From contig JAZLEQ010000018.1 of assembly GCA_045615365.1 (NCBI GenBank), forward strand, positions 106,384-170,383: a stretch of 64,000 nt of DNA. The letters run 5' to 3'. Both the position numbers and the translations under genes were made by a program. Shown piece after piece: positions 1,625-63,192 of the stretch. The stretch comes from Alphaproteobacteria bacterium. Lineage in GTDB: Bacteria; Pseudomonadota; Alphaproteobacteria; RF32; CAG-239. Under the pieces are notes generated by a model, which was not told the DNA's origin, did no database searches, and saw only the letters and a list, made by a program, of their open reading frames with translations. Numbering within the stretch: position 1 is the stretch's first letter; the number at the start of each line of letters is the position of its first letter.

Positions 1625-2287
1625 TTATCTGTGCCCGAGCAATCCTTCGGAAATGTGTTTATTTATGTTTATAAAACTTTCAATCTTGCTCTTGCTCACA
1701 TTTTCCACATCTTTAATCAACACACTGGTATTGCTGCAAATATAATCAGACAATGTCATCAAATTACTCTTAACATCTTCAGCCAAATTTGTCGAATTTC
1801 TTTTCATCAAAACCTTAATAAAAAGCCACAAATTCATATTGTTTTGCAATGCTCCAACCAACATATCTTTGTCATTAGAGTTCAAAGCTGTTGACAAATC
1901 CAAACCGCATTTTGCCAAATAATATGCTTCACATTGCGCCAGATTAGCATTAACGGATTCTTTCAAACCTTCCGATATCTGACGATTAATCTCTGCCAAA
2001 GACTTAAAATATGAATCCGTCATATTTACACCCTTTGCCAAAGTAACACTTTCAACATAGTTTGAAAGTTTCTTCAAGCCGGATTTAATATTTTGCGGAA
2101 ACATGTTGCTTTCTTTATTAACGGCAACCTTAATCCCTACCCACATCTTTAAATTTTCATCTAAAGCCAAAGCCTTATAACTCAAGTCATCCGATACGAT
2201 GGCTTTTTCTAAAGACTGTGCAACTTCACATAAAACATCGGCATCTTTTTGTGCTTCTTCAATATTGTTTTTTATTTCTTCAAACAT
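1625..2287 (-). CDS. Hypothetical protein with internal duplication, collinear with the flgFGAH cluster
   Basis: 220 aa. Two internally similar halves (…SNYVESVTLAKGVNMTDSYFKSLAEINRQISEGL… vs …LSDYICSNTSVLIKDVENVSKSKIESFININKHISEGL…). No recognisable family. Sits directly downstream of flgH on the same strand. Confidence 0.45.
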   Translation of the reverse strand: MFEEIKNNIEEAQKDADVLCEVAQSLEKAIVSDDLSYKALALDENLKMWVGIKVAVNKESNMFPQNIKSGLKKLSNYVESVTLAKGVNMTDSYFKSLAEINRQISEGLKESVNANLAQCEAYYLAKCGLDLSTALNSNDKDMLVGALQNNMNLWLFIKVLMKRNSTNLAEDVKSNLMTLSDYICSNTSVLIKDVENVSKSKIESFININKHISEGLLGHR

Positions 2288-2354
2288 ATTAAATCCCTAT
2301 AAGTTAAATAATTAAAAACCAAAAAATCTTTCTAAAATTCATTCCAAAAAAATA

Positions 2355-2425
2355 AAAAAGGAGAAAAACATCAAGTAATGTTGGGGAATATATAAAAAAC
2401 AATACTAAGCACGTTTTTCTCCTTC
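2355..2425 (-). terminator. Long hairpin (ggagaaaaac … gtttttctcc) followed by a T-run on the minus strand; putative terminator after flgH
   Basis: 10-bp perfect inverted repeat with a large loop, located in the 260-nt gap between flgH and the 220-aa ORF. Confidence 0.35.
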
Positions 2426-2549
2426 CTTTATTTTTTATAACCGACATACTCTCGGCTACATCATTTTTTAAGAAAAAATTGGGGAGATTTTTTCTGTAAA
2501 AAACATTTATCACATAATAATAAGGGAAACTTTTTTTCAAATTACTCTA

Positions 2550-3311
2550 TTAGAATGGAGCAACAATATCCAAAATCTGTCTTCCGTATCTAGGCTGCTG
2601 AACATCGGAAATAACACCCTGCCCGCCGTAAGAAACTCTAAGTTCCGCAATTTTGCTCGATTCTATAGTATTATTAGATGATATATCTGCTCTACGAATA
2701 ATACCTTTCATCGAAAGCTGACGAACTTCATAGCTCACTCTAACTTCTTGAGTTCCTTCAATTACCAAATTTCCGTTTGGCAAAACCTGAGTAACAATAG
2801 CTGCAAACGTAACATTAATACTTTCTTTTCTGTCAATCTTACCATCACCGGCTATTTCTCTGTTTGATGTCACATTAATCAAATTATCGCTTTGAACCGT
2901 ATCAGGAAAAACTTTACCCAAGTATTTTTCATACCCGAACACCGACGAAATTCCCATAGAATCTGTATTATTATCTCTGTTTTGTTCCATTTCGTTTTCC
3001 ATCAATGCTGTATCATTCACAGTAATATTAACTGTAATAATATCGCCAACCTTAGATGCTCTCTGATCCTTAAAGAAACCTGCCGAACCTTGTTTCCACA
3101 AAGAATTTGCAGCTTGAGTTTCTTCTCTTTGCTCCGGCATAGGCATTGAAACCGGCATATATCCCTTTGCATCTAAAGGGTTTGTAATCGGCGACAATGG
3201 CGGTTCTTCCCCTACTTGGCCCAAACGACTCAATATACCGCATCCTGACAACGAAGTAGCCACCATTAAAACTGCCAACCCCTTTATAATATTTTCATTT
3301 TCTCTCATCAT
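2550..3311 (-). CDS. flgH: Flagellar L-ring lipoprotein FlgH
   Basis: 253 aa, lipoprotein signal (…ATSLSGCG), typical FlgH length and composition; in flgF-flgG-flgA-flgH order. Confidence 0.85.
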   Translation of the reverse strand: MMRENENIIKGLAVLMVATSLSGCGILSRLGQVGEEPPLSPITNPLDAKGYMPVSMPMPEQREETQAANSLWKQGSAGFFKDQRASKVGDIITVNITVNDTALMENEMEQNRDNNTDSMGISSVFGYEKYLGKVFPDTVQSDNLINVTSNREIAGDGKIDRKESINVTFAAIVTQVLPNGNLVIEGTQEVRVSYEVRQLSMKGIIRRADISSNNTIESSKIAELRVSYGGQGVISDVQQPRYGRQILDIVAPF

Positions 3312-3326
3312 TTCAATAGCTCCTCA

Positions 3327-4043
3327 TTACTCCGTCACAACTTCAATCATATTTGCATTCAACACTTTTCCTTTGAGTGTCTTTTCACTTTTCATATTCA
3401 TCAGTTTAATCGTCTGTCCTCTTGCCCCATCTTCCAAGGCCTCCATTTTAGAAACTATTTCCAAGCCTTTATATTTATAAACGACCACTACCGACTGCCC
3501 TTTTTTAACAATTATTTCTTCTCTGACATCTTTTCTGCTTACCGGTTTATTTGCAGCAATGGTTCGAACAACTTGTTTACCGAGCAAATCTTCTTTGTTT
3601 TTCAACACATCATCACGCAAACGATTACTTCTTACTTTAATTTTTTGCAAAGTTTCTTCTTTTATGATTTCTCCCTTTGCAATACTCATCACAGGAACAT
3701 AAATCTCTTCCGATACAAAAAACCTACCCAACAAACCGGTTTCATCAACTTTTGTTCCATCGGCAAAAATTTCCGCCTTTGCTTCAAACTTATTTTGATC
3801 TTCGTCAATATCTAAATCGGTTATCATAATTTTAATATTTTTGGCCTCGGTCAATTCAAAGCTTGTTTTTCCGCCGAAAATTTCCAATTCCACATCTTCG
3901 CCGTATCCTTTTTCAACAAACTCTCTTGCCACTTCGTCAATAAGAGAAATCGCACTAACCGTCATTCGTTCAGAAGCTAAAGCAACTGAAGCAACCAACC
4001 AAGCAAATACTAAAACCGATCTAAATAGCATATTATCAAACAC
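3327..4043 (-). CDS. flgA: Flagellar basal-body P-ring formation chaperone FlgA
   Basis: 238 aa, signal peptide, C-terminal SAF-like region (…KGQSVVVVYKYKGLEIVSKMEALEDGARGQTIKL…); position between flgG and flgH. Confidence 0.75.
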   Translation of the reverse strand: MFDNMLFRSVLVFAWLVASVALASERMTVSAISLIDEVAREFVEKGYGEDVELEIFGGKTSFELTEAKNIKIMITDLDIDEDQNKFEAKAEIFADGTKVDETGLLGRFFVSEEIYVPVMSIAKGEIIKEETLQKIKVRSNRLRDDVLKNKEDLLGKQVVRTIAANKPVSRKDVREEIIVKKGQSVVVVYKYKGLEIVSKMEALEDGARGQTIKLMNMKSEKTLKGKVLNANMIEVVTE

Positions 4044-4044
4044 C

Positions 4045-4833
4045 CTATTTCATCTGATTAATTGTATTTAACATTGAATCTGATGTTGTGATAATTTTTG
4101 AATTCATTTCATATGCACGTTGTGCTGAAATAAGTTCGGTAATTTCACTCACGGGATTAACGTTTGAAGTATTGAGATACCCTTGTAAGATTGAACCGAA
4201 ACCTTCACTGTCCGGATTATCAACAATCGGATCTCCTGAAGCTTCTGTTTGCACAAACAAATTATCACCCAAAGCTTCCAATCCGGCTTCATTTACAAAT
4301 GTTGCAAGTTCTAATTGTCCGACATTAACTTCATCTGTTTCGCCGTCTTGTTTCACCCAAACTTCACCTGAGCTGTTAACATAAACTTCAACTGCGTCTT
4401 CAGGAATTGTAATTTCAGGCTGCACGACATATCCGTCATGAGTAACTATTGTTCCGTCACCATTACGCTGAAAAGCACCATCTCTGGTATATGCGGTTCC
4501 TTTTCCTTCCGGTAATTCAATAGTAAAGTATCCTCTACCTCTGATAGCCAAATCCAAATCATTTCCGGTAGAAGTTAGTGATCCCCCTTCTGTAATACGA
4601 TAAATTGCTGATGTTCTCACACCCAATCCCAATTGAATACCTGCCGGAACAATAGTATTATCAGCTGTGGAAGCAGACCCCGGACGAACAATATTTTGAT
4701 ACAACAAATCGCTAAACTCAGCTCTTCTCTTGGTGTAAGCTGTTGTGTTCATATTGGCAATATTGTTAGAAATTGTGTCAACATTTGTTTGTTGAGCCAA
4801 CATTCCGGTTGCACCTATTTGTAATGATCTCAT
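4045..4833 (-). CDS. flgG: Flagellar basal-body rod protein FlgG
   Basis: 262 aa; N-terminus [36 protein letters not shown] and C-terminal …[25 protein letters not shown] rod-protein motifs. Confidence 0.9.
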   Translation of the reverse strand: [262 protein letters not shown]

Positions 4834-4853
4834 CTTAATATTCCCCTAAATTT

Positions 4854-5597
4854 TTAAGCTAATTCTGCATATGTTGAAATTGTATTTGATAAACGATTGT
4901 GTTCTTCATCAATCATTTGTTGCACATAATCATAACTGCGTTGAATTTTAACCAAATTTGTCATTTCAGCAATTGCATTAACATTTGAGTTTTCAACCAT
5001 TCCTTGAGCAATTCTGACATTCCCCGAACCATATGTAACAGCATTATCTTTTACATTTTCAAATAAAACGCCGCTGAGTTTTTTCAATTTTTGGTTATCG
5101 GCAAATTTTGCCACTTTCAACTTTCCTACAACTCCGTTTTCCGTAATAACATCGCCACTTTCCGAAATTGTAATTTCTGTTTCTCCCGGAGCAATAAACA
5201 AAGGAGTATTATTCTCACTCAACACATAATCGCCTTCACTTGTAACAATTGCTCCATCTTGATCTAAAGTAAATTGTCCCTTACGAGTATATTTTTCACC
5301 GTCTGCCGTTTCCACACAGAAAAAACCGTCTCCCTTAATTGCCACATCAAGAGTATTTCCTGTATACTTAAAATCACCTTCCATAAAATTATGATAATTT
5401 GCAAAATCCTGAGTAAAGAATTGCGGCATCGCTCCGATACCTTCAGCATCAGGTGTTTCATTAATATACAAAGTAAACAAAACTCCGTCTTGCTTATAAC
5501 CGGCAGTATTCATATTGGCCATATTATTAGAAACAATATCCATCTGTTTCCAAAGAGCCATTTGACGCGAAAGAGCTATATAAGCTGTATTATCCAT
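4854..5597 (-). CDS. flgF: Flagellar basal-body rod protein FlgF
   Basis: 247 aa; MDNTAYIALSRQMALWKQMDIVSNNMANMNTAGYK… rod N-terminal domain and VENSNVN…MTNLVKIQRSYDYVQQMI C-terminus. Confidence 0.85.
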   Translation of the reverse strand: MDNTAYIALSRQMALWKQMDIVSNNMANMNTAGYKQDGVLFTLYINETPDAEGIGAMPQFFTQDFANYHNFMEGDFKYTGNTLDVAIKGDGFFCVETADGEKYTRKGQFTLDQDGAIVTSEGDYVLSENNTPLFIAPGETEITISESGDVITENGVVGKLKVAKFADNQKLKKLSGVLFENVKDNAVTYGSGNVRIAQGMVENSNVNAIAEMTNLVKIQRSYDYVQQMIDEEHNRLSNTISTYAELA

Positions 5598-46808: not shown

Positions 46809-46990
46809 TTTCCTTACCTTTATCTTCTAACCGTGATTATTTTTATAATTACGAAAGGCAATATATCATAAAAAAGGGTTTAAATCTAGAGGAAAAAACA
46901 TATTTTTTTCATTTTTTTTAACTCAATATTAAATCTAATGACATAAAATTTTCTCACATTGAGGTATTTGTGTTTATTTCGGAACCATTA

Positions 46991-48718
46991 ATGAAACATA
47001 TAAGCAAAATTTTATTATTCGGATTATTTGTATTTTCAAGCGCATCCGAAGCAGCCATGCTTCCGGAATATGCTGACAATTCATATACCGAACATTCCCT
47101 ATCCCGTTCCGACACAAATTGCATAAAAGCCGGCTATAAGGTAACTTATGGAGATTGCAAAGGGCAAACTGCTCCTGAAGGACGTTGTCCGCACAGCAAT
47201 AACTACTATCGCGCTTGCACTCAAAGACAATGGTGCTTGAACTATAACTATACATATTCAAACAAAAATTGTCCGTCTCCGCAATTCCCTGCCAAACAAT
47301 GTAGCAACGGATATGAACTTTATCGCGCATGTAACCTTAACAATGAAAAAGCATGCCGTCAACTCGGCTACAATCCCCAAAACGAATGTATGCTCACCGA
47401 AGAGCGCTGCCCTTATGACAACACTTATGGCAAGTGCTGCGATTCATGTCCTAATTTTTCTCATTCGATTGATGAAATTCCAGCCGGCTACATTGCTGAT
47501 GGTCCCATATGCATAACTTGCGACAAAATCAAAAAAACCAACATCATTGAAAATCCGTGTGAAGGCTACACAAAATGCAGCTATGGACCTAAAACACTCC
47601 AAACAACATCATGCTTACGCGGTAAAGAAGTTTTATATTCCGAATGCAAAAGTTCCGAACAATTGTGCATTGAACAAGGATACACAAAGAAGTCCTGCAA
47701 ATCCACAGAAAACACAATAAGCTGCCCTCAAAACACCAATTTGAAAAGCTGCACTACAAATTGCGAAAAACTCATCAGTAAACTATACCCTGAAGCACAA
47801 ATCATCACACACGACATAGTAAACCCTAAAATTGATGATACAAAAAAGGAATTGCGTTCCAGTTACGGAATACTGTCCAAAGAATGTAACTCAGAATATC
47901 GTCCGGAAATCAGGCTTGATTTAAACTACAATAATTATAATGACTACGTATACTTATTTAATAAAAACATAAGCAATATAAATTTCGTGCTCAATTTTGA
48001 AGATCCGGTTGATATAATCTTTGGCGGCATATTGGAAAATGTTAAAATAAAAACAATTGGCAATACTCCGGAATGCCCGATTAAAGGAGAGCTCATAAAA
48101 ATAAATGACACAGTAAGCTTTATTAATGACAAAACAATATGTGCCAATATTGAAATCAGAGATTCTTCCAAATTTATCACCACCGGCAATGTAAAAGGCG
48201 ATATCAATGCCGGACAAAACTCTTCAATAGGCATAAAAGGAAATCTTAACGGCCTGCTTCAAACCAAATCCTTTTCCGAAATTTTCATAAAAGGAAATTA
48301 TAGCGCCACAGACACCAACAATCTTATACATCCGAACGGCAGCATTGTTTTCGGCTGCGACAATAAGGCCAAAATACTTGGCGGAATATCTGCCGAAACT
48401 GCAAATATTATAATAAAACGAAATTCAACCGTAGACACTCCATTTATCAAAATAAAATCAACAAGCTCCAACTTAGATTTACCCAACCAAATAAGCAGCA
48501 TTCATGTTCACAAATATTCTAAAATCATGACAACATACGATAAAACCGAATTCCCCATGATTTACAACAATAGCTTTGATTGCGATGACAAATATTTCAT
48601 CCATCTGGGTTCAGATATTCAACTTGCCAAACAAGAAATATCCATAGAACCTTCGGCATTTTATCGTGAAAAATGGCAGTGCCAAAAAATATCTCGCCAA
48701 CAGGCAAATTGCGATTAA
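46991..48718 (+). CDS. Large cysteine-rich secreted protein (575 aa from Met-8), ORFan
   Basis: Signal peptide (…SSASEAAML). About 40 Cys in repeated modules (C…GY…C, YRAC…C…GY), then a Cys-poor Asn/Ile-rich C-terminal half. No homology recognisable. Confidence 0.55.
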   Translation: MKHISKILLFGLFVFSSASEAAMLPEYADNSYTEHSLSRSDTNCIKAGYKVTYGDCKGQTAPEGRCPHSNNYYRACTQRQWCLNYNYTYSNKNCPSPQFPAKQCSNGYELYRACNLNNEKACRQLGYNPQNECMLTEERCPYDNTYGKCCDSCPNFSHSIDEIPAGYIADGPICITCDKIKKTNIIENPCEGYTKCSYGPKTLQTTSCLRGKEVLYSECKSSEQLCIEQGYTKKSCKSTENTISCPQNTNLKSCTTNCEKLISKLYPEAQIITHDIVNPKIDDTKKELRSSYGILSKECNSEYRPEIRLDLNYNNYNDYVYLFNKNISNINFVLNFEDPVDIIFGGILENVKIKTIGNTPECPIKGELIKINDTVSFINDKTICANIEIRDSSKFITTGNVKGDINAGQNSSIGIKGNLNGLLQTKSFSEIFIKGNYSATDTNNLIHPNGSIVFGCDNKAKILGGISAETANIIIKRNSTVDTPFIKIKSTSSNLDLPNQISSIHVHKYSKIMTTYDKTEFPMIYNNSFDCDDKYFIHLGSDIQLAKQEISIEPSAFYREKWQCQKISRQQANCD

Positions 48719-49185
48719 TCATTAACATTAGGCGAATATATAGTCTGAGGTTGCGCAGGATTACTCATAACCTTAATATCTTCTTCCGGATATGATTGCA
48801 CATCATAAATACGTCCGTTAGCTTCGACCAAAGTATTCTGAAAATCTTTTCCTAGTTTAATTGCTTCTTGTTGCGGATTATTAATCTGCTCGTTACTAGT
48901 TGTATTTTCATTCAAATTTTCCGTTTCACCGGAACCAAAACTTTGAACCGGATTTTTCGAAATTTTATTTTCTTGAATTCCTGACGGCTGCGACACAACA
49001 TCCGGCAACGGACTTCCTAACGGATTCGGAGCATCTTTCGGCTGTTCCACCACCATAACATTTTGTCCTCCGTCAGGGGTTGCCGCCGAAACTTCAATAA
49101 TTGTAGGAGTTTCATTAACCTCAGCTCTGGCCACCCCTCCCAACATCACTAAAATTGCGAATACTGCATTATAATAACCCAACAT
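48715..49185 (-). CDS. Hypothetical secreted low-complexity protein (156 aa)
   Basis: Signal peptide (…GGVARAEV), Pro/Gln/Asn/Ser-rich; its stop overlaps the Cys-rich gene stop (convergent). Confidence 0.45.
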   Translation of the reverse strand: MLGYYNAVFAILVMLGGVARAEVNETPTIIEVSAATPDGGQNVMVVEQPKDAPNPLGSPLPDVVSQPSGIQENKISKNPVQSFGSGETENLNENTTSNEQINNPQQEAIKLGKDFQNTLVEANGRIYDVQSYPEEDIKVMSNPAQPQTIYSPNVND

Positions 49186-53159: not shown

Positions 53160-54023
53160 ATGTTATTACACTTATTAATTAATACTTTGATTGTCGGGTC
53201 TGGCTATGGTTTGGTTGCCATGGCTTTTCGTCTGATGTACTCTGTTTCGCCATTTTTTAATATGACGCTCGGCGCAATAGCCGCTTTGGGAGCTTATACA
53301 GCCTATTGGTTGCTAAACCTTGGCACACCATTGCCGGTAGTGGTGGTTGCTGCACTGTTGATGAGTGCTTTATTTTCGAGCTTTTTAGAAATTTGTATAT
53401 ATACTCCTATGCGCAATCACGGTGCTTCTTCAATGATTTTGATGGTTGCATCTTTGGGTGTTTATACGATTTTTGAATCGGTTATTCACTTGATTTTTGG
53501 TCCACAATATCAAACTTTGGGCAACATTAACTCTGCAATCAATGTAAATTTAGGTTTTGTAAACATTCCGTTGGTGCAGTTTTTAACCATTATTGCTAAT
53601 ATTGTAGTGTTTGTTTTCTTAAATTACTTTTTACATCATACATTTACCGGAAAACAAATCAGAGCGGTTAATGATAGCTCTACCTTGGCCAATATAATTG
53701 GTATGAAAAACAACCAAATAATCTTGTTGGTATCGGTTTTGACCGGTTTAATTCTTGGCTTAGACGGTGTTTTGGTCGGATATGATACCGGAATGGAGCC
53801 GACAATGGGCTTTAATTTGTTGTTTAAGGGAATGATAGGTGCAATTATAGGCGGACTTGCCAACTTGCGTGGAGCTTTCTTTGGAGCGCTTTTCTTAGCC
53901 TTAGCCGAAAATGTCGGAGTGTTGTTGTTTGCTTCGGAATGGCGCGATTTGATAGCCTTTGTGATATTTATTACATTTTTATCGCTTCGCCCGAAAGGAA
54001 TTTTTCAAAAAAAAGGAGAATAA
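53160..54023 (+). CDS. livH: Branched-chain amino acid ABC transporter permease, LivH-like
   Basis: 287 aa, 8-9 TM, BPD_transp_2-type membrane protein. First gene of the T/G-rich cassette. Confidence 0.7.
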   Translation: MLLHLLINTLIVGSGYGLVAMAFRLMYSVSPFFNMTLGAIAALGAYTAYWLLNLGTPLPVVVVAALLMSALFSSFLEICIYTPMRNHGASSMILMVASLGVYTIFESVIHLIFGPQYQTLGNINSAINVNLGFVNIPLVQFLTIIANIVVFVFLNYFLHHTFTGKQIRAVNDSSTLANIIGMKNNQIILLVSVLTGLILGLDGVLVGYDTGMEPTMGFNLLFKGMIGAIIGGLANLRGAFFGALFLALAENVGVLLFASEWRDLIAFVIFITFLSLRPKGIFQKKGE

Positions 54024-54028
54024 AAGAA

Positions 54029-55144
54029 ATGAAAAAGGTTTTATTGAGTTTGATGATGGCGACATCTTTGGTTGCTTGTGGTGAAAAAGCCGAGGCTCCG
54101 AAAGAAAACGAAAAACCGATTATAAAAATCGGCGCGACTTTACCTTTGACAGGTGATGCAGCGGAGGCTGGACAGGCTGCAAAGGCCGGACTTGAGATGG
54201 TTTTAGATGATTTGTCGCAAAAGGGACTAAAATATGATTACAGGCTTATTTTTGAGGATAACCAGATGAATCCTCAAAAAGTGGCTACTACCATAAACAA
54301 AATGGTAAATATTGATAATGTCAAAGCGGTGCTATCATTTTGGAACCTAATGGGTAATGTTTCGTCGGCTTTGGCAGAACAAAATAATGTTTTTTCATTT
54401 ACTTGCTCTATTGGCGAGGATTCGACCAAAGGAAAGTACAATTTTAACAATTATGCTTCAAATTATCAACAAGCGGAAGTATTGGTTGAAACCTTAAAAG
54501 AGTACAATGTTAAGACTGTTGCACTGTTTACGGATAATTCCGGTATGCGCCATCAGTTTGAAGTTGTAAAAGACTATATGAAGAATCATTCTGATATTGA
54601 GATTGTGTTTGAAGAGTTCTTTAACCCCGGAGAAAAAGATTATAAAGCAGCAATAATCAAAGCTTCGACAAAAAATCCGGATATGTATTTGTATTCAGGG
54701 TATAATCCTTCAACCTATATTTTTATGAAGCAACTCAAAGAAATTACCGGCAAGAATAATAACGTTACCACTATTGATATGTTTTTTGATATGGCTGTTA
54801 AGGACCGTGATATTATTGAAGGATTGTGGTATGTTGATTCTAATTTGAACGGAACAAAAGAATTTCAAGACAGGTTATTAAAGGAAAAGGGCTTAGTTTC
54901 GCAGTCTTGCACAGGTAATACAGCTGCAAATTTGGAAATTATTGTTAACGCATATGAAAATGCTCTTGTATCTGAGGGCGAAACTATCCCGAGTAATGAT
55001 GCTGTCAGAGATTGGATTTTTGCTAATGTTAAAGATTTTGATACTGTTGGCGGTAGAGTTTCAGTTGTAAGAGAAGGATTGTTTGATAAAAAACCATCGA
55101 TTAAAAAAATGATAAATCGTGAACCGGTTGTGGTGGAGGAATAA
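54029..55144 (+). CDS. ABC transporter substrate-binding lipoprotein, Liv (PBP type I) family, paralog 1
   Basis: MKKVLLSLMMATSLVACGEKAEAPKENEKPIIKIGATLPLTGDAAEAG…; lipobox LVAC. The track ORF 53939.. is an upstream extension. Confidence 0.75.
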   Translation: MKKVLLSLMMATSLVACGEKAEAPKENEKPIIKIGATLPLTGDAAEAGQAAKAGLEMVLDDLSQKGLKYDYRLIFEDNQMNPQKVATTINKMVNIDNVKAVLSFWNLMGNVSSALAEQNNVFSFTCSIGEDSTKGKYNFNNYASNYQQAEVLVETLKEYNVKTVALFTDNSGMRHQFEVVKDYMKNHSDIEIVFEEFFNPGEKDYKAAIIKASTKNPDMYLYSGYNPSTYIFMKQLKEITGKNNNVTTIDMFFDMAVKDRDIIEGLWYVDSNLNGTKEFQDRLLKEKGLVSQSCTGNTAANLEIIVNAYENALVSEGETIPSNDAVRDWIFANVKDFDTVGGRVSVVREGLFDKKPSIKKMINREPVVVEE

Positions 55145-55153
55145 TATTAAACC

Positions 55154-56020
55154 ATGGAATATTTAATTAACTTAGCGATTTTATTTGGTATATATTCAAT
55201 GTTGGCGTTGTCGCTCAACTTGGTGGTTGGTATGAGCGGGCTTGTGTCTTTGGCTCAAGCGGCGTTTTACGGTATTGGCGCTTATGCTACGGCTATCGGC
55301 ATGACATCGTTGGGGTTGGGCTTTTTTACAACCATTTTGTTCGGAATGATTATAAATGCTCTTGTTGCCTTTGTAGTGGGTAAAATCTTGGCTCGTTTCC
55401 AAGGCGATATATATGCTATTGTTTCGGCGGGATTATCTATTATTGTCTTTTCAATTTTACTGAACTGGAAATCTGTAACCAACGGACCTTTGGGAATTTT
55501 CGGAATCGGAAAGCCTGAAATCGCCGGATATGCTTTTTATTCTAATTCGGCATTTTTGATGCTGACCTTAGTCTTTACCCTTGTGATTTTTGCAATTTAT
55601 TGGTGGATTGACAAATCTTCTTTCGGACGAGTCTTAAAGGCTCTGCGCGAAGATGAAAAACTTACACAAATCATGGGATACAAAACCAAATATTATAAAA
55701 GTGTGATTTTTGTATTGTCAGCGGCTTTATCGGGAATAGCAGGTTCGTTTTTTGCCAGCTATATTGCATTTATCGACCCATCAACATTTCAGCTTAAAGA
55801 AGGTATCTTTTTGTTTACAATCATTATTGTCGGAGGATTGTCATCAGCCAGAGGAAGTGTGATTGGTGCATTGATTCTCATATCTTTGCCCGAGATTTTG
55901 CGTTTTATCGGTCTGCCCTATGAAACAGCCGCTCAAATGCAACAAATTATTTATGGTGCAATGTTGTTGCTGATGATGATATTCAAACCACAAGGCCTGT
56001 TCGGAAAGTATAGGATGTAA
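55154..56020 (+). CDS. livM: Branched-chain amino acid ABC transporter permease, LivM-like
   Basis: 288 aa, polytopic, glycine-rich TM helices typical of the LivM/BraE family (shorter than E. coli LivM). Confidence 0.65.
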   Translation: MEYLINLAILFGIYSMLALSLNLVVGMSGLVSLAQAAFYGIGAYATAIGMTSLGLGFFTTILFGMIINALVAFVVGKILARFQGDIYAIVSAGLSIIVFSILLNWKSVTNGPLGIFGIGKPEIAGYAFYSNSAFLMLTLVFTLVIFAIYWWIDKSSFGRVLKALREDEKLTQIMGYKTKYYKSVIFVLSAALSGIAGSFFASYIAFIDPSTFQLKEGIFLFTIIIVGGLSSARGSVIGALILISLPEILRFIGLPYETAAQMQQIIYGAMLLLMMIFKPQGLFGKYRM

Positions 56021-56025
56021 TATAA

Positions 56026-56841
56026 ATGAAAAAAGTAACAGATATATTAAATTTCAAAAAACTACAATCGGGAGTGGCGTGTGATGCAAAAATAGCTTCG
56101 CCGTATGGTTTGGATATTATTACTTGTAAGGATCTTAATAAGCAATTTATGGGGATTAAAGCAATTGATAACCTCTCAATTGCAATTCCTCAGGCGATGA
56201 CTACCGGTCTGATTGGCCCTAACGGCTCGGGCAAAACAACCTTGATGAACATTTTAACCGGTATGCTAACTCCGGATTCCGGCGAAATAACGATTCGCGA
56301 CAAAAAACGTAATAGAGTAAAATCTCACGAATTGCGAAAATATCGCATGGCACGCACATTCCAAGACGGACGCCTTATTGAACAGCTTTCGGTAGAGGAC
56401 AATCTGTTGCTTCCGGTGGCAGAAAATTCATTGGTTGAGGCTTTGAAGGAGATTAAAACAGATGATTATAAAGCTCGCATGGAGAAAGTGCTAGAGATGA
56501 CATCGCTGACTGCTCATCGCTTTAAGAGAGCCGAAGAATTGTCTTATGGTTTGCGCAAACTCTTAGAGGTCGGCCGAGTATTGATGCAAGATGCCGACAT
56601 ATATTTCTTTGACGAGCCGTTTACCGGTCTGTTCCCTGAGGTTGTGGAACAAGTTTGCGGTATCATCGGAGGCTTACAAAAACAAGGTAAAACAATAGTG
56701 ATTATTGAACATAATATGGGACTGATTAAGCGCCTGAGTGATTATATAATTGTGCTTAACCATGGTGCGTTAATGGCTGAGGGCAAGCCGGATAGTGTCT
56801 TGCAAAACAAAGACGTCCGCGAGGCGTATTTGGGCGTATAG
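56026..56841 (+). CDS. livG: ABC transporter ATP-binding protein, LivG-like
   Basis: 271 aa; Walker A GPNGSGKTTLMNILTG, signature LSYGLRK, Walker B IYFFDEP, C-terminal branched-chain-type extension. Confidence 0.8.
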   Translation: MKKVTDILNFKKLQSGVACDAKIASPYGLDIITCKDLNKQFMGIKAIDNLSIAIPQAMTTGLIGPNGSGKTTLMNILTGMLTPDSGEITIRDKKRNRVKSHELRKYRMARTFQDGRLIEQLSVEDNLLLPVAENSLVEALKEIKTDDYKARMEKVLEMTSLTAHRFKRAEELSYGLRKLLEVGRVLMQDADIYFFDEPFTGLFPEVVEQVCGIIGGLQKQGKTIVIIEHNMGLIKRLSDYIIVLNHGALMAEGKPDSVLQNKDVREAYLGV

Positions 56842-56908
56842 AAATAATGTCATAGCGAGGAGAATAGCGACGAAGCTATTTTGGCTAATTAAAAAGAAAG
56901 GAAGGGAT

Positions 56909-58009
56909 ATGAAAAAGGTTTTATTAAGTATAATGATGGCTTTTAGCTTAACCGCCTGTGGGGAAAAAGCCGAAACTCCGAAAGAAAACGAAAAGCCGGT
57001 GGTGAAAATCGGTGCAACCTTGCCTTTAAGCGGTGGATTTGCCGAAACCGGTGTTTTGAGCCAACAGGCAATGCAAATGGCATTGGATAAATGGAAAGCA
57101 AAAGACACTAAATATGATTATCAGTTGTTTGTAGAAGATGATGTTTCAGAGCTTAAAAAAGCTGTTTTGAATGCTCAAAATTTTATCAATACTAAAAAAG
57201 TACAAGCTATTATGACAATGTTTGGTATTGTTGATAGACCGGTTGATGAAATTGCCAACAACAACAAGGTTATCAGTTTGTCTTGTTCTTATGGCAAAAC
57301 AGATGTTTTAGAATATGCGGCCAATAATTGTGTGCAAAATCATCGCGTTGCTGAAACATTACTTCCAAAATTAAAAAAAGAAAATATTAAAAAAGTAGCT
57401 TTAATTATGGCAAATACGGCTGTTAATCGTGTTGTCGGTGATTATTTTGCCGAAAGATTGCCTCAAGAAGGTTTTGAAGTTGTGGCTTATGAAAAGTATA
57501 ATATGGATACTCGCGATATGAGAATGTCGATTTTAGCCATGGAAGAAAAACAACCGGATTATTATCTTACTTTTGCAACACCCCCTCTAACAGATATTTT
57601 TGTAAAACAGCTTCAAGAAACCGTCGGTAAAAGAAATGTAGCTTCTTTTGGCTCATTTCCTGAGATGGATCCGGCGTTGTTTCCGTTGGTTGAAAATTTG
57701 TGGACAATTTATTCGGTTGCCGGAACAGATGAATTTGCAAAAGAATTTGAAAATAAAACCGGCAGTGTGTTAAAAAGTTGTAATGCCAATTCTTATGATA
57801 ATATGGATATGTTGATTTGGGCTTTTGAAAATACTCCGGTAAAAGAGGGAAAAGTTTTGCCTGATACGGCTGATGTCGCCGCTAAGTTGAAGAGTATAAA
57901 AAATTGGCAAGGTGCTACGGGAAATGTATCTTTTGAAAATGGCGTAATCAGTCCTAAAGCAGAATTGAGAATGTATCAAAACGGAAAATGGGTTAAGATT
58001 GAGGAATAA
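56909..58009 (+). CDS. ABC transporter substrate-binding lipoprotein, Liv family, paralog 2
   Basis: MKKVLLSIMMAFSLTACGEKAETPKENEKPVVKIGATLPLSGGFAETG…; RBS aaaggaagg. The track ORF 56795.. is an upstream extension. Confidence 0.75.
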   Translation: MKKVLLSIMMAFSLTACGEKAETPKENEKPVVKIGATLPLSGGFAETGVLSQQAMQMALDKWKAKDTKYDYQLFVEDDVSELKKAVLNAQNFINTKKVQAIMTMFGIVDRPVDEIANNNKVISLSCSYGKTDVLEYAANNCVQNHRVAETLLPKLKKENIKKVALIMANTAVNRVVGDYFAERLPQEGFEVVAYEKYNMDTRDMRMSILAMEEKQPDYYLTFATPPLTDIFVKQLQETVGKRNVASFGSFPEMDPALFPLVENLWTIYSVAGTDEFAKEFENKTGSVLKSCNANSYDNMDMLIWAFENTPVKEGKVLPDTADVAAKLKSIKNWQGATGNVSFENGVISPKAELRMYQNGKWVKIEE

Positions 58010-58013
58010 AAAT

Positions 58014-59117
58014 ATGAAAAAAGTTTTACTTAGTTTGTTAATGGCGACATCTTTGGTTGCTTGTGGAGAAAAAACAGAAGCTCCAAAGGATAATGGTAAA
58101 CCGACAATCAAAATTGGAGCAACCTTGCCTTTGAGTGGCGATTTGGCATATATTGGTGTTGGTGCTAAAAATGCTTTGAATATGGTTATGGAGAAATGGC
58201 AACAAAAAGATACCAAGTACAATTATCAGATTGTTTATGAAGACGATATGGTTAAGCCCAAGCAAGCTGTTTTAAATACTAATAAGTTTATAAATGTTGA
58301 TAAAGCAAATGTTGTTATTTCGGTGTTTGGTGTAGTTGACAGACCAGTTGATGAGATTGCTAACAAAAATAAAGTTATCAGCCTTTCTTGCTCTTATGGC
58401 AAAAATGATGTACCAGCATATGGATTCAACACCTCACCGCAAAATGAAGAGATTTATGTCGCATTACTTAAAGAACTCAAAAAGAGAAATGTTAAAACGG
58501 TGGCTTTGTTAGGAAGCAATGCTGCTGTGAGTAATGTTTTGTTGGGTTATACCGCAGAACACTTACCAAAAGAAGGAATTGAAGTTGTTTTTAATGAAAG
58601 ATATAATTTAGGCGAAACAGATTTTCGCTTGTCTATTCAAAAAATGGAACAAAAAGCTCCGGATTATTATGTTTTGTTCGGAGTTGAGCCGATGAACAGT
58701 ATTTTTGTACGCCAATATTATGAATTGACTGGTAAAAAGAATGTTACTTCAATGGGAACTTTTCCTAACATTAGTACAAAAGTTTTTCCGGCAATAAATG
58801 GTATATGGTCAGTATATGTGGTTGGTAACAGTGACGATTTTGAAAAGGCATATTTTGAAAAACATCAAGATCGAGTAGAAGCATGCTCTGCCAACTTATA
58901 TGATGGTTTGGATATGATTATCAATGCTTTTGAGAACACATCTCCGAAAGAAAATGAAACCATAGCTAACAATGCCGATGTCTTACAAATGATTAGGTCC
59001 CCTAAGGTTTGGGACGGCGTTTCAGGAAAAATGAAGATTGAGCCTAACGGATGCGTGCGCATGGACGTTCCTGTTCGAGAATACCAAAACGGAGAATGGG
59101 TTAAGATTGAGGAGTAA
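58014..59117 (+). CDS. ABC transporter substrate-binding lipoprotein, Liv family, paralog 3
   Basis: MKKVLLSLLMATSLVACGEKTEAPKDNGKPTIKIGATLPLSGDLAYIG…; RBS gaggaa. N-terminal ~25 codons nearly identical at the DNA level to paralog 1. Confidence 0.75.
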   Translation: MKKVLLSLLMATSLVACGEKTEAPKDNGKPTIKIGATLPLSGDLAYIGVGAKNALNMVMEKWQQKDTKYNYQIVYEDDMVKPKQAVLNTNKFINVDKANVVISVFGVVDRPVDEIANKNKVISLSCSYGKNDVPAYGFNTSPQNEEIYVALLKELKKRNVKTVALLGSNAAVSNVLLGYTAEHLPKEGIEVVFNERYNLGETDFRLSIQKMEQKAPDYYVLFGVEPMNSIFVRQYYELTGKKNVTSMGTFPNISTKVFPAINGIWSVYVVGNSDDFEKAYFEKHQDRVEACSANLYDGLDMIINAFENTSPKENETIANNADVLQMIRSPKVWDGVSGKMKIEPNGCVRMDVPVREYQNGEWVKIEE

Positions 59118-59149
59118 AAATATGAAAAAGGTTTTGTTGAGGAGTAAAA

Positions 59150-59848
59150 ATGCTCGAGCTTAAAAATGTTAATGCCGGATATGGCAAAAAAATGGTGTTG
59201 AGTAACGTTTCGGTTAAGCTTAATGATAACACTATTACCGTTGTTATGGGACCAAACGGTGCGGGCAAATCAACATTGTTAAAAACAGCTTATGGTTTGA
59301 TAAAAACATCATCAGGCGATATTTTGCTTGATGTCAAAAAAATCACTCCAACCCCGCAAAAATTGGTTGAACTTGGAGTTTTTATGGTGCCGCAAGGAAA
59401 ACGTGTTTTTCGCAATATGACCGTTATGGAAAATCTTGAGCTTGCATCTCATTTTTGGAAAGACAGATCTATATTTCCTCAGCGATTGGACGAGGTTTTA
59501 GCTCATTTTCCCGATTTGAAAGAACGATTAGATGATTTGGCAGGAAATCTCTCAGGCGGACAGCAGCAAATGGTCGCTTTGGTTCGCGGACTTATCAATA
59601 AACCCAAAATGGTGTTTATGGACGAGCCATCGATCGGTTTGTCACCTAAATTGATTAACGACACTTTCCATAAGATTAAAGAAATAAAAGACAATATGGG
59701 AACAGCTTTTGTTATTGTAGAGCACAACCTTAAAACTTTACTTCCTCTTACCGATTGGGCTTATATCTTAGATCAGGGAAAAGTGATTTATGACGGCAAA
59801 TCCGAGGGTAAAACCCTAGAAAAAATGGTCTCTGCTGTGTTTAAATAG
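59150..59848 (+). CDS. livF: ABC transporter ATP-binding protein, LivF-like
   Basis: 232 aa; Walker A GPNGAGKSTLLKTAYG, signature LSGGQQQMVALVRGL, Walker B VFMDEPSIGL. Confidence 0.8.
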   Translation: MLELKNVNAGYGKKMVLSNVSVKLNDNTITVVMGPNGAGKSTLLKTAYGLIKTSSGDILLDVKKITPTPQKLVELGVFMVPQGKRVFRNMTVMENLELASHFWKDRSIFPQRLDEVLAHFPDLKERLDDLAGNLSGGQQQMVALVRGLINKPKMVFMDEPSIGLSPKLINDTFHKIKEIKDNMGTAFVIVEHNLKTLLPLTDWAYILDQGKVIYDGKSEGKTLEKMVSAVFK

Positions 59849-60205: not shown

Positions 60206-60919
60206 TCATAACCGATACGTTGCAGAATTTCCATACTCATCATAAAGATGAACTTTAGCAAACCCTTTTCCTGTTGTTATATCAATAAACGCATCCTTCG
60301 CATAAAACGAAAGCTTTTGATTTTGATATAAACTAAAATAATAATCTTTGCCCTTAAGTGAAACTTTAAGTTGCCCAAAATAGCGCTCAAAGACCATATC
60401 TCCGACACTAATACGAACAGGAGCCTCAAAATCACCCCAAAGATAATAACCGAGCATGGCATCAAAATACCTATCATCATAACGCATATGACGTATAAAT
60501 CTGTTGGTATATCCCCTCCATTTAATCCAAGTCCAACTGTCAAAAACACAGTCATAATGATGGTGGCGATAACTTTCATGATGTTTATACTCCGGTTTCC
60601 AACCTTTACGCTGTGGTTGAGGTGGTGGAGTTACGGAATATGGCTTCAACACATGATTCCTCTGTTGCACCCCAGGTCTGTAAGGCATTCCAACCGGCAT
60701 ATCCGAACGATAATTATCCTGTTTTGGCTTTCCCTTACGAGAATAATTTGGTCTAGATTTATCTCGTCGTGTCTGACTTTGAGATGAAGAATAACTCTTT
60801 TCCGAACGTGTTTTAGTATTATATCTTTGCATTTCACGTCCTCTTGCTTCTTGCGCGTAACCTTGAACTGCAAAAAGCACAATAGCCGACATAGCTATAA
60901 ATAAAAACTTTCCTTTCAT
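60206..60919 (-). CDS. Hypothetical secreted protein (237 aa), basic and low-complexity (S/Q/R/K/P/Y-rich) in its N-terminal half
   Basis: Signal peptide (…AVQGYAQEA); no recognisable domain. Confidence 0.45.
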   Translation of the reverse strand: MKGKFLFIAMSAIVLFAVQGYAQEARGREMQRYNTKTRSEKSYSSSQSQTRRDKSRPNYSRKGKPKQDNYRSDMPVGMPYRPGVQQRNHVLKPYSVTPPPQPQRKGWKPEYKHHESYRHHHYDCVFDSWTWIKWRGYTNRFIRHMRYDDRYFDAMLGYYLWGDFEAPVRISVGDMVFERYFGQLKVSLKGKDYYFSLYQNQKLSFYAKDAFIDITTGKGFAKVHLYDEYGNSATYRL

Positions 60920-61095
60920 ATATATACAAATAATAATTTTCTATTACTTGCAACACTATATCCTATTTTGATAAAAGTCGAACACTTTTTTGCAGCTGAA
61001 TTTGTTATATAAAAAAACACAATAAAAAACATTTGATTTTTGAAACAAATAGATTATCATCGCCCCAATTAATAAACTTATTAAACTTTATTATC

Positions 61096-61461
61096 ATGGA
61101 AAAAATAAAATTTATAAGCGCCAGATTAAAAGCTAAAATTTTAAACATTATCGGACACGATGTATTATCTTCACGCCTTGTTTTATTGGTAAAAGAATTG
61201 TATTATACCGACATCAATGGAAAAACCGGACAAGTTATCTTTGACGATTTCACCCACAAAGTTGTTTTTCGAGCAGACATGACAACTGAACCATCATTTC
61301 ACAGTAGCTTGTGGGACAATGGAGATATAATCAATGGAGATATCGTAGAAATTGCCATTGAAAATTACCAAGATCTTTATTTTTTCACATCTTTTAAGGT
61401 TGTAGAAAAAGAAAAGCGTTTCGAAGGTTTTAGCGGACTGGAAGAGCTGGCAATGCTTTAA
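61096..61461 (+). CDS. Hypothetical protein (121 aa from MEKIKF; a TTG at 61033 would add 21 aa)
   Basis: ORF followed by a bidirectional terminator at 61470-61502. Confidence 0.4.
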   Translation: MEKIKFISARLKAKILNIIGHDVLSSRLVLLVKELYYTDINGKTGQVIFDDFTHKVVFRADMTTEPSFHSSLWDNGDIINGDIVEIAIENYQDLYFFTSFKVVEKEKRFEGFSGLEELAML

Positions 61462-61469
61462 CAGACAAA

Positions 61470-61502
61470 AAAACAGAAGCCTTTTAAGACTTCTGTTTTT
61501 TG
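61470..61502. terminator. Bidirectional intrinsic terminator (aacagaag / cttctgtt + T-run)
   Basis: 8-bp hairpin with A-run before and T-run after; between convergent genes. Confidence 0.55.
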
Positions 61503-61504
61503 AG

Positions 61505-62602
61505 TTATTTTAGCATTTTCAACCATTTTTTTCTCGCCGTACAGCACAAACTTCCATGTTTAAGGAAGTATATTTCTCCAAGTTTTTTGCCGTTTTTTAA
61601 TTCAAGCATTTTCACTTGGGCTTTTGCACAAAGAGTATGTTTCTTAACATATTCTCTGATAAGCTTATCGGCATCCGAAAGTTCAAATAATTTAATTTGC
61701 ACTTTTTCGCAAAGCTCATATTCTTCGATATACCTCTTTAGAAACTTCGGATAGTCAAGCAATTTAAACTGACCAGACACATAAAGACTAAGCTTACCGA
61801 TACATACATCCAAAAGCTCTTCTGCATTTTCAAGCTCAAACATTTTAAGTTCTGCTTCAGAACAAAAAGAGCCGAACTCAACATATGCTTTAAGAATTTC
61901 CTTTGCATTCGGCAGATCAAGCATTTTTAATTGCGCCTCTGCACAAAGAGCATACTTTTGAGAATATATTTCAAGAATTTCCTTTGCATTCGGCAGATCA
62001 AGCATTTTTAATTGGGCTGCTTTGCTCAAAGAATCATGCTCAACATACAATTTAAGAATTTCCTCAACATTCGGAAAATCAAGAAATTTCAGCTCTACTT
62101 CTTCACAACAACTCTCATATTGGACATAGATTTCTATAAATTCACTTGCTTTAGGATGCTCCATCATTTTCAATTCCGTTTCATCAAAAAGAGGATATGC
62201 ACGAAGATATACTTTAAGAATTTCCTTTGCATTCGGCAAATCAAACATTTTAAGTTCTGCTTCATTGCAAAGTTCATATCTTTCAACATACTTCTTAACC
62301 AACTTTTCGGCATTCGGAAGTTCAAATAACTTCAACTGAGCTTTATCACAAAGAATATAATCCAAAACATACTCTTTCAAAATTGTCTCAGGATCTGGCA
62401 GATCAAAAATCTTCAACTCAGCTGCGTCATAAAAACCTCTCCTCTTAACATACGCTTTTACAGCCTCTTCCGGATAAGGAAGTTCAAATAACTTCAACTG
62501 AGCCTCTTCGCAAAGGACATTACCCTTTTTAATAAACGATAATACACGTTCTTGTGCATCATCAGTGGCAAACATTTCTAATTGCCAAGTTACATCTTTC
62601 AT
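61505..62602 (-). CDS. Tandem-repeat protein: about nine ~36-aa repeats of consensus (A/E)(Q/E)LK(M/L)(F/L)(D/E)LPNA(K/E)E(I/L)LK.YV…(L/F)C.EA; ORFan family
   Basis: 365 aa. Repeat units such as AQLKLFELPNAEKLVKKYVERYELCNEAELKMFDLPNAKEILKVYLRAY… recur along the whole protein. The underlying DNA contains near-identical ~40-80-bp repeats. Confidence 0.6.
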   Translation of the reverse strand: MKDVTWQLEMFATDDAQERVLSFIKKGNVLCEEAQLKLFELPYPEEAVKAYVKRRGFYDAAELKIFDLPDPETILKEYVLDYILCDKAQLKLFELPNAEKLVKKYVERYELCNEAELKMFDLPNAKEILKVYLRAYPLFDETELKMMEHPKASEFIEIYVQYESCCEEVELKFLDFPNVEEILKLYVEHDSLSKAAQLKMLDLPNAKEILEIYSQKYALCAEAQLKMLDLPNAKEILKAYVEFGSFCSEAELKMFELENAEELLDVCIGKLSLYVSGQFKLLDYPKFLKRYIEEYELCEKVQIKLFELSDADKLIREYVKKHTLCAKAQVKMLELKNGKKLGEIYFLKHGSLCCTARKKWLKMLK

Positions 62603-62615
62603 ACTTTTTTTATTT

Positions 62616-63044
62616 TTAATTATTTTTCAACATCTTCTGCCATTTTTCTTGCAGTTCTTCACAAAGGCGTTGTTTGCTTATATAAATAGCAACTAAAGAA
62701 CTTGCATCTAAATGTTCAAACAACTTAATTTGAGCACTTTTGCAAAGCAAATCTTTTTCCGCAAACACCCTAAGAAGATCTTTAACATTTACGCATTCCA
62801 TCATCTTTAATTGGGCATTACGACTTAGTGAATAATGTTGAAGATATTCCTTCAACAGATCAACAGCATTTGGAAGTTCAAGCATTTTTATTTGTGCTTC
62901 CGGACACAAAAAATTTCCTTTTTGAACATATTCAAACACAAACTTTTGTGCATTTTCAGATTCAAACAAGGCCATCTGCTCGTGAATTTTTGTATTTTTC
63001 ATATAATATAAATTTAAAAATTTGACAAAATTATAAAACTTCAC
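62616..63044 (-). CDS. Short paralog (142 aa, about three repeats) of the adjacent 36-aa tandem-repeat protein
   Basis: The N-terminus (…HEQMALFESENAQKFVFEYVQKGNFLCPEAQIKMLELPNAVDLLKEY…) parallels the N-terminus of 61505..62602. Both end …K(W)LKMLK. Confidence 0.55.
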   Translation of the reverse strand: MKFYNFVKFLNLYYMKNTKIHEQMALFESENAQKFVFEYVQKGNFLCPEAQIKMLELPNAVDLLKEYLQHYSLSRNAQLKMMECVNVKDLLRVFAEKDLLCKSAQIKLFEHLDASSLVAIYISKQRLCEELQEKWQKMLKNN

Positions 63045-63151
63045 AAAAATAATAATCTGTTTTTATTAAAAATCAAGTTTTTTTCAAAAAAATAGACAAA
63101 AAACATTTGAGTCTCTTCAACTTTAATTTGTTATTTTTCCCACAATAAATA

Positions 63152-63192
63152 AAACCCCTCACACATTTAACCATTGTGAGGGGATTTTTTTA
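63152..63192 (-). terminator. Intrinsic terminator after the CaCA antiporter gene (cccctcaca / tgtgagggg)
   Basis: 9-bp GC-rich hairpin flanked by A/T runs. Confidence 0.6.

Follow-up and report, generated by a model that had tools for sequence, protein, structure and literature searches.

Two adjacent genes on the minus strand of a 64-kb stretch of DNA from an Alphaproteobacteria bacterium (contig JAZLEQ010000018.1, positions 106,384 to 170,383; the whole stretch is called the window below) were analyzed computationally. They encode proteins of 365 and 128 amino acids (aa), both composed of a short tandem repeat. The pair is best explained as part of an undescribed, fast-diversifying family of soluble, cytoplasmic alpha-solenoids that would serve as binding scaffolds, encoded here in a two-gene unit. 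For this explanation taken as a whole, the chances are put at about even.

Repeat unit and relationship of the two proteins

The period of the repeat was determined by autocorrelation with BLOSUM62 scores. For the 365-aa protein, z values of 19.5, 15.8, and 13.8 were obtained at lags 27, 54, and 81, compared with 0.1 at lag 36; none of 1000 shuffles reached the observed values. The small protein showed the same period, with z = 6.8 at lag 27 versus 0.4 at lag 36. The period is 27 aa (81 nt), and the 81-nt period was recovered in the DNA by Tandem Repeats Finder and by a direct-repeat search, with eight in-register copies of 60–77% identity. An earlier interpretation of the same DNA, made from the letters alone (the sequence-only reading), had assumed a period of about 36 aa, with about nine repeats in the large and about three in the small protein. 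This period was not borne out, and manual segmentation, confirmed by a hidden Markov model (HMM) built from the units, divided the large protein into 13 units and the small one into 4. In the large gene the array (61535..62584, minus strand) consists of 13 units of 81 nt, with one unit of 24 codons and two of 28. The units are only ~34% identical to one another and show no two-residue hypervariable code. The most alike adjacent units are approximately units 7–9 (aa 174–242; 61877..62083, minus strand), for which Tandem Repeats Finder gave a period of 81, 2.6 copies, 77% matches, and a score of 240. Units 8 and 9 are closest to each other and share QLKMLDLPNAKEIL, which points to a recent duplication, and the region of units 7–9 is probably the youngest internal duplication of the gene.

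A family consensus, [QE]-L-K-[LM]-F-[ED]-L-P-N-A-x-E-[LI]-[LV]-x-x-Y-[IV]-x-x-x-x-L-[CS]-x-E-A, was obtained from 597 units taken from the best 150 listed of 263 family proteins (see below). Unit spacing across the family is 27 in 161 cases and 28 in 109. Information content is high at positions 1–5, 8–10, 17, 23, 24, and 26, with the top values at Q/E1, K3, F5, P8, N9, Y17, L23, and C/S24, and it is lowest at positions 11, 15, 16, and 19–22. The LPNA turn and the conserved Cys near the end of the unit, both pointed out in the sequence-only reading, were found again in the unit segmentation and in the family HMM. Position 24 is Cys in 54% and Ser in 30% of the 597 units; because the two alternate freely, this residue seems to behave as a small, buried one.

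The two proteins are 35–36% identical (BLASTP, E = 4e-22), and their N-terminal repeats match (QLEMFATDDAQERVLSFIKKGNVLCEEA versus QMALFESENAQKFVFEYVQKGNFLCPEA). Both begin with a special first unit (N-cap), Q..MF...DAQ..V..[FY][IV].KGN.LC.EA, and both end in a basic, Trp-containing tail, RKKWLKMLK in the large and QEKWQKMLKNN in the small protein. The earlier description of a tandem paralogous pair in two minus-strand open reading frames (ORFs) therefore stands, and the two appear to be complete paralogs. A single gene split by a frameshift was considered and rejected, since neither ORF lacks an N-cap or a C-terminal tail and the full architecture recurs in small homologs.

Predicted structure and cellular location

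Structures were predicted with AlphaFold2 using small homolog alignments. The model of the 365-aa protein had a mean predicted local distance difference test (pLDDT) score of 92.5, a predicted template-modelling score (pTM) of 0.80, and 27 helices. For the 128-aa protein the corresponding values were 95.7, 0.87, and 9 helices. Both models are all-helical with two helices per unit throughout, of ~7 and ~9–11 residues according to DSSP. In this layout, helix A covers approximately positions 25–27 and 1–4, followed by the turn [ED]-L-P-N, helix B at approximately positions 10–19, and a loop ending in L-[C/S]. The C-terminal tail is modelled as a longer capping helix. On the basis of these models, both proteins are very probably alpha-solenoids with two helices per repeat. 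The sequence-only reading had suggested an alpha-solenoid and had proposed structure prediction as a check of the solenoid geometry; the fold was supported by the predicted two-helix stacks, and the TPR/Sel1/HEAT-like periodicity suggested along with it was not, the period being 27–28 residues.

The 365-aa protein is acidic, with a pI of 5.25 and a net charge of −11 (family median pI 5.9), and its Cys content is 3.3% compared with 1.17% in ten housekeeping proteins. In agreement with the sequence-only reading, no signal peptide was found in either window protein, and no hydrophobic N terminus or transmembrane (TM)-like segment was detected. From the lack of a signal peptide or TM segment, the acidic pI, and the Cys enrichment, which fits a reducing compartment, we infer that both proteins are cytoplasmic.

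Organization of the two-gene unit

With respect to transcription, the small gene lies upstream of the large one, not downstream as had been stated before; the genes are 13 nt apart and lie in different frames. The small gene (62616..63002, minus strand) encodes the N-cap unit, three core units, and the C-terminal cap helix. The ORF found mechanically at this place is longer (62616..63044, minus strand), with 142 aa from a GTG at 63044, and is the ORF from which the sequence-only reading took its 142-aa paralog. This ORF is real, and the ATG at 63002 is the most likely start codon of the gene, which then encodes 128 aa. The shorter form is identical (100%) to the public gene call P0024; in alignments its first residues, MKNTKIHEQMALFE, correspond to MKDVTWQLEMFA of the large protein and to the N termini of small homologs; and the −10 element of the promoter-like site ends at 63049, just 5 nt ahead of the GTG. 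This candidate promoter (TTGATT-16 nt-TATTAT; 63049..63076, minus strand) is sigma-70-like by consensus match only and is the sole promoter-like site upstream of the small gene.

The large gene (61505..62602, minus strand) starts with ATG and encodes a 6-residue head, the 13 units (aa 7–356), and the C-terminal tail. An A-rich spacer of 13 nt (62603..62615, minus strand) separates it from the small gene. The spacer contains no terminator and no Shine-Dalgarno-like motif; the sole hairpin reported between the gene ends (62564..62537) lies inside the coding sequence of the large gene. The leaders of both genes (62603..62627 and 63003..63027, minus strand) are A/T-rich. Four nt past the stop codon of the large gene is an intrinsic terminator hairpin of 15 pairs followed by a T run (61468..61501, minus strand), which is shared with the convergent gene 61033..61461. 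Upstream of the pair, after the Na/Ca-exchanger gene, a terminator-like hairpin, CCCCTCACA/TGTGAGGGG followed by TTTTATTT (63147..63183, minus strand), was read from the sequence; the terminator scan had missed it because its loop is 11 nt. This hairpin probably marks the upstream boundary. With hairpins on both sides and a terminator-free spacer, the pair looks like an independent two-gene transcription unit, and the two genes would be co-transcribed. The GC content at third codon positions of both genes is within the range of neighboring genes. No third copy of the repeat gene was found in the 64-kb window by a six-frame HMM search, in which the two genes had E values of 2e-147 and 3e-47 and the next match 0.49.

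Size and distribution of the family

In 5.8 billion clusters, a word-indexed search detected only 12 relatives of the large protein, with identities of at most 38%, and none of the small protein except itself. When 1.84 billion representatives were searched exhaustively with HMMER and a three-unit profile derived from the window, 263 proteins had an E value of 1e-3 or lower; of these, 121 reached 1e-10 or lower and 28 reached 1e-30 or lower. In the best 150 listed of the 263, lengths range from 58 to 739 aa and are mostly 100–400 aa. The description of the pair as ORFans is thus valid with respect to orthologs and fails at the level of the family, which comprises 263 clusters. For neither window protein was a relative above ~40% identity found, compared with 85–91% for relatives of HslU, and because of this ceiling the repeat family appears to diverge much faster than housekeeping genes.

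Three sub-architectures were distinguished. The first comprises small soluble proteins like the window pair, with an N-cap, 2–6 units, and a ..KW..M.K tail. Proteins of the second have ~400 aa, start with MKKxxLxWLDFLA, and are encoded divergently beside rpsF-rpsR-rplI. In the third, of ~300 aa (one of 739 aa), hydrophobic TM-like segments precede the repeats. Of 156 family proteins, 24 have TM-like segments, and ~18 of these 24 belong to the ~300-aa subgroup. No fusion to a Pfam domain above the curated cut-off was found in any of the 20 members scanned, which included the ten longest and eight with TM-like segments.

All named members are annotated as "hypothetical protein" and come from metagenome-assembled genomes (MAGs) labelled Alphaproteobacteria bacterium, Pseudomonadota bacterium, or "Acetobacter sp." Pattern scans gave just two distant loci in genomes and six in metagenomes. 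The family appears to be largely confined to poorly known, uncultured Alphaproteobacteria. Two members are located on metagenome contigs of 58% GC (L018, 5641..6450; L021, 3915..4397), and the family is therefore not strictly confined to a low-GC lineage. The L018 gene is flanked by two ORFs judged by eye from their translations, one of 970 aa and autotransporter-like, the other of 428 aa and GTPase-like. An origin from phages or plasmids was rejected, because tblastn searches of phage genomes and of plasmids gave no relatives, and neither did pattern scanning of IMG/VR.

At least five tandem paralogs are encoded at locus L005 (6474..10458, plus strand), with lengths of 219, 294, 314, and 219 aa and one cut by the contig end. 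The MAG carrying this locus is labelled Pseudomonadota bacterium S29M_St_20, and its units (LPNAAELLK[IV]YIS) are far more uniform than those of the window. At locus L001 a second family member of 118 aa is encoded on the opposite strand. The family probably grows by duplication of 81-nt units and of whole genes, which would give tandem paralogs with differing unit numbers. An all-against-all comparison of neighbors at 14 non-redundant loci revealed no shared neighbor family besides the repeat proteins. The surroundings of the homologs are of housekeeping type (rpoBC, ribosomal proteins, HU, GreA, and MacB-type transporters). Adjacency to rpsF-rpsR-rplI is restricted to the ~400-aa MKKxxLxWLDFLA subfamily (L007–L011; ~8001..9236 in L007). 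At L009–L011 the gene of this subfamily lies between the rpsF-rpsR-rplI operon and rplJ-rplL.

Comparison with known solenoid families

The consensus had not been recognized in the sequence-only reading, in which placement of the repeat in a known family by profile searches was named as one outcome that would speak against novelty. Such searches were performed, and none placed the repeat. In Pfam and NCBIfam nothing exceeded the curated cut-off, even when searched at E ≤ 10, and no Pfam family recurred among nine relatives (E ≤ 1). PADLOC models did not match the repeat proteins. The PHROGs gave one weak match, phrog_13789, a phage family of unknown function (E = 1.8e-6, 28.6 bits, aa 221–248 of the 365-aa protein). 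Searches of PDB sequences yielded nothing significant, either with the single proteins or with the three-unit family profile (best E = 0.23). Nothing on this repeat was found in the literature.

Structural comparison was performed with Foldseek. Against the PDB, the large model matched generic solenoids, namely PUF-8, Nop9, Hsm3, and beta-catenin, with E values of at least 7e-4 and TM-scores of at most 0.29. The small model gave no E value below 0.67, and its top query-normalized TM-score, 0.56, was obtained with a designed alphaRep. Among predicted viral structures, the best match (E = 1.9e-7, TM-score 0.33) was to a phage protein whose annotation reads "leucine rich repeat variant".

Four groups of known repeats resemble the window proteins to some extent. 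The leucine-rich repeat variant (LRV; PF01816, Azotobacter vinelandii structure 1LRV) shares the very short helical repeat, the solenoid, and the Leu-rich core. The LRV unit has 24 residues with alternating alpha and 3-10 helices, whereas the window unit has 27–28 residues and two alpha-helices, and no Pfam LRV match was found for the large protein at E ≤ 10 or among nine family members. The PBS-lyase/EZ HEAT-like repeats and alphaRep have in common with the window proteins the two-helix units of ~30 residues, the bacterial origin, and the regular stacking. However, the alphaRep match of the small model is not significant (E = 0.82 at the TM-score given above), and no match to Pfam HEAT, HEAT_2, HEAT_PBS, or HEAT_EZ was found (E ≤ 10 for the large protein, E ≤ 1 for relatives). 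The HEAT-like period is ~31 residues (HEAT-type range about 31–47) compared with 27–28 here, and the consensus FDLPNA...Y...LC.EA is different. PUF/Pumilio proteins and Nop9 are the top PDB matches and form an elongated helical-repeat stack of similar total length. For PUF and the 365-aa protein the E value was 7.4e-4 but the TM-score only 0.25, and there was no PUF Pfam match. A PUF protein usually has eight three-helix units of 36 residues, and its concave, RNA-binding face is basic, in contrast to the acidic window protein with two helices per 27 residues. Finally, Sel1-like Cys-rich proteins (Helicobacter Hcp) and TPR proteins consist of helix-turn-helix repeats with a conserved Cys and form paralog families in host-associated bacteria. 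Their periods are 34–44 residues; in Hcp proteins every unit contains a disulfide pair, and the protein carries a signal peptide. The window proteins differ by one Cys/Ser per 27-residue unit, the lack of a signal peptide, and the lack of lag-36 periodicity. The only match to a TPR/Sel1 family in Pfam was TPR_CFAP46_N, below threshold (E = 0.11, 12.6 bits versus a cut-off of 27). The repeat appears to belong to the broad class of short HEAT-like/LRV-like solenoids and, within it, to represent a sequence family that has not been described before.

Proposed function and alternative explanations

A non-enzymatic role as scaffold or adaptor is the preferred assignment of function; it is tentative, its chances falling somewhat short of even, and follows from the analogy with other alpha-solenoids. 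The proteins would be produced from the self-contained minus-strand unit, in the order candidate promoter, 128-aa gene, 13-nt spacer, 365-aa gene, and terminator. Each would be built in three parts: an N-cap repeat (Q..MF...DA...VL.YVK.GN.LC.EA), variable core repeats, and a basic C-cap helix with Trp (..KKW..MLK). In the stack, the hydrophobic positions 2, 4, 5, 7, 10, 13, 14, 17, 18, 23, and 24 would form the core, and a repeating ladder would be built from the polar side of helix A, which hardly varies (E26, Q/E1, and K3). The variable positions 11, 15, 16, and 19–22, in helix B and the loop, would lie on one helical stripe and supply the partner specificity. In relatives with N-terminal TM segments, this kind of module would be displayed at the inner membrane.

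Several points weigh against this proposal. The binding function of the family rests on analogy, and the concave and exposed faces were deduced from helical periodicity only. The conserved polar residues may be purely structural, forming salt bridges and helix caps. Expression of both genes is presumed rather than certain, because both are without a Shine-Dalgarno-like motif, which is present in 20 of 29 other window genes checked, and because the promoter match is no better than chance, the count of promoter-like sites being equal to the shuffle expectation. The 365-aa product is also absent from a public collection of 15 billion proteins, in which its 128-aa neighbor P0024 is present, as is HslU (P0179) from the same NCBI contig as P0024.

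In a further reading, which we regard as unlikely, uncultured Alphaproteobacteria, probably those of gut or rumen, might use the family as a lineage-specific, fast-diversifying recognition repertoire in conflicts with phages, other bacteria, or hosts. The helix-A ladder would then hold a common feature of the ligands, the helix-B stripe would read different targets, and the paralogs would differ in unit number.

Among the explanations that depart from the scaffold proposal, membership in a conflict system is unlikely. The proteins would confer immunity to interbacterial toxins or would serve as decoys for, or sensors of, phage proteins. The arrays of two to at least five paralogs of 100–300 aa with very fast divergence agree with such a role and resemble orphan immunity-gene arrays, and both the weak phrog_13789 match and the phage "leucine rich repeat variant" protein as best viral fold match point in the same direction. 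However, there was no PADLOC match, and no toxin, nuclease, protease, or other effector was a conserved neighbor at the 14 non-redundant loci. The lack of relatives in the phage, plasmid, and IMG/VR searches argues against it as well. In addition, many members have 370–740 aa, which is long for immunity proteins, and the fixed position of one subfamily beside rpsF-rpsR-rplI is unlike that of mobile defense islands.

The sequence-only reading had considered the proteins candidates for host-interaction effectors, typical of endosymbiont-like genomes; this, too, must be considered improbable, and no supporting evidence specific to it was found. Such a protein would be exported by, for example, a type IV, type I, or flagellar-type pathway with the help of its basic C-terminal tail, and its binding partner would be a protein of the host. 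Six Lys/Arg residues are found in the last 10 residues of the 365-aa protein, recalling the positively charged C-terminal signals of VirB/D4 substrates. A lineage-restricted, repeat-based, fast-diversifying family with tandem paralog arrays is a pattern common among effectors, and several members come from gut- or rumen-type metagenomes or MAGs, the habitat being deduced from sample and record names. In contrast, both proteins lack a signal peptide, no non-flagellar secretion gene of type III, IV, or VI was present among the window ORFs scanned, and the window content is that of a motile, metabolically ordinary bacterium rather than an endosymbiont (see below). The approximately one Cys per repeat fits a reducing compartment, some relatives have N-terminal TM segments, the homologs are located beside ribosomal-protein and rpoBC operons and not in islands, and no eukaryote-like domain is present.

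A modular nucleic acid binder with one nucleotide per unit, like PUF, PPR, TALE, or mTERF proteins, is very unlikely. PUF and Nop9 are the best PDB fold matches of the large model and also head the list for the small one, Q/K/N/Y residues are conserved in every unit, and one of the long relatives matches mTERF below threshold (E = 0.0056). The fold matches are nevertheless poor, with a TM-score of 0.25 for the large and ~0.4–0.5 for the small model and small-model E values above 0.6, and the units have two helices compared with three in PUF. The acidic character of the protein and of the family, and units of low mutual identity that carry no two-residue code, speak against it as well.

Spurious or decaying ORFs that stay open by chance in repetitive DNA, to which the missing Shine-Dalgarno motif and the absence of the 365-aa product from the protein collection might be attributed, are hardly conceivable, given hundreds of homologs that keep the same residues at the same repeat positions, intact ends that match between the paralogs, the very high AlphaFold2 confidence, the dedicated terminator, and third-position GC in the range of the neighbors.

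Gene content of the window

A flagellar cluster (1625..5597, minus strand) encodes FlaF, FlgH (L-ring), FlgA, and two FlgF/G-type rod proteins. The window also encodes LolCE, UvrA, RecJ, HslU, a FadL-type transporter, an Aas-type acyltransferase/ligase, acetate kinase, phosphotransacetylase, an AI-2E family transporter, Hsp33, HemN, GlmM, and an ABC importer ATPase. The window HslU is identical to a protein encoded on the same NCBI contig as P0024. Its closest relatives are 82–91% identical, and the named ones are proteins of Alphaproteobacteria MAGs. This content suggests a motile, fermentative, free-living or commensal organism. Because flagellar, Pta-AckA, FadL, Lol, and other genes occur in the same 64 kb, the genome is not endosymbiont-like, and the earlier characterization as such was not upheld.

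The genes next to the repeat pair are a 237-aa ORF (60206..60919, minus strand), whose product has a signal peptide and is, over one half, basic, rich in His and Pro, and of low complexity, and the small convergent ORF at 61033..61461 (plus strand); neither had a match in Pfam, PHROGs, or PADLOC. The ABC importer ATPase (59150..59848) belongs to an ABC-importer-like cluster (53160..59848, plus strand); it matches Pfam ABC_tran and is the only cluster member that was scanned against Pfam. Three paralogs of this cluster (53939..55144, 56795..58009, and 57999..59117) have a lipoprotein-type N terminus, MKKVLLS...ACGEK, read from the ORF translations, and are candidate substrate-binding proteins. 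A very Cys-rich protein of 582 aa with a hydrophobic N terminus (46970..48718, plus strand) and a convergently encoded, secreted-looking protein of 156 aa (48715..49185, minus strand) were also without a Pfam match.

Significance

The fold class of the alpha-solenoids is well known; what is new is the 27–28-residue FDLPNA...Y...LC.EA unit with its own caps, which is absent from Pfam, NCBIfam, and the PDB and defines a compact family of ~260 clusters. No long-standing question becomes testable through the family at present. Its interest is moderate to low for general biology and somewhat higher for the structure and design of repeat proteins and for the annotation of uncultured Alphaproteobacteria. 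Because their geometry is very regular and confidently modelled, the proteins lend themselves readily to structure determination and to screens for partners. If the family does constitute a recognition repertoire, it would provide a natural 27-residue scaffold, shorter than ankyrin, TPR, and HEAT-like units, with potential use in repeat-protein design. Naming the family would clear a block of "hypothetical proteins" from the genomes of uncultured Alphaproteobacteria.

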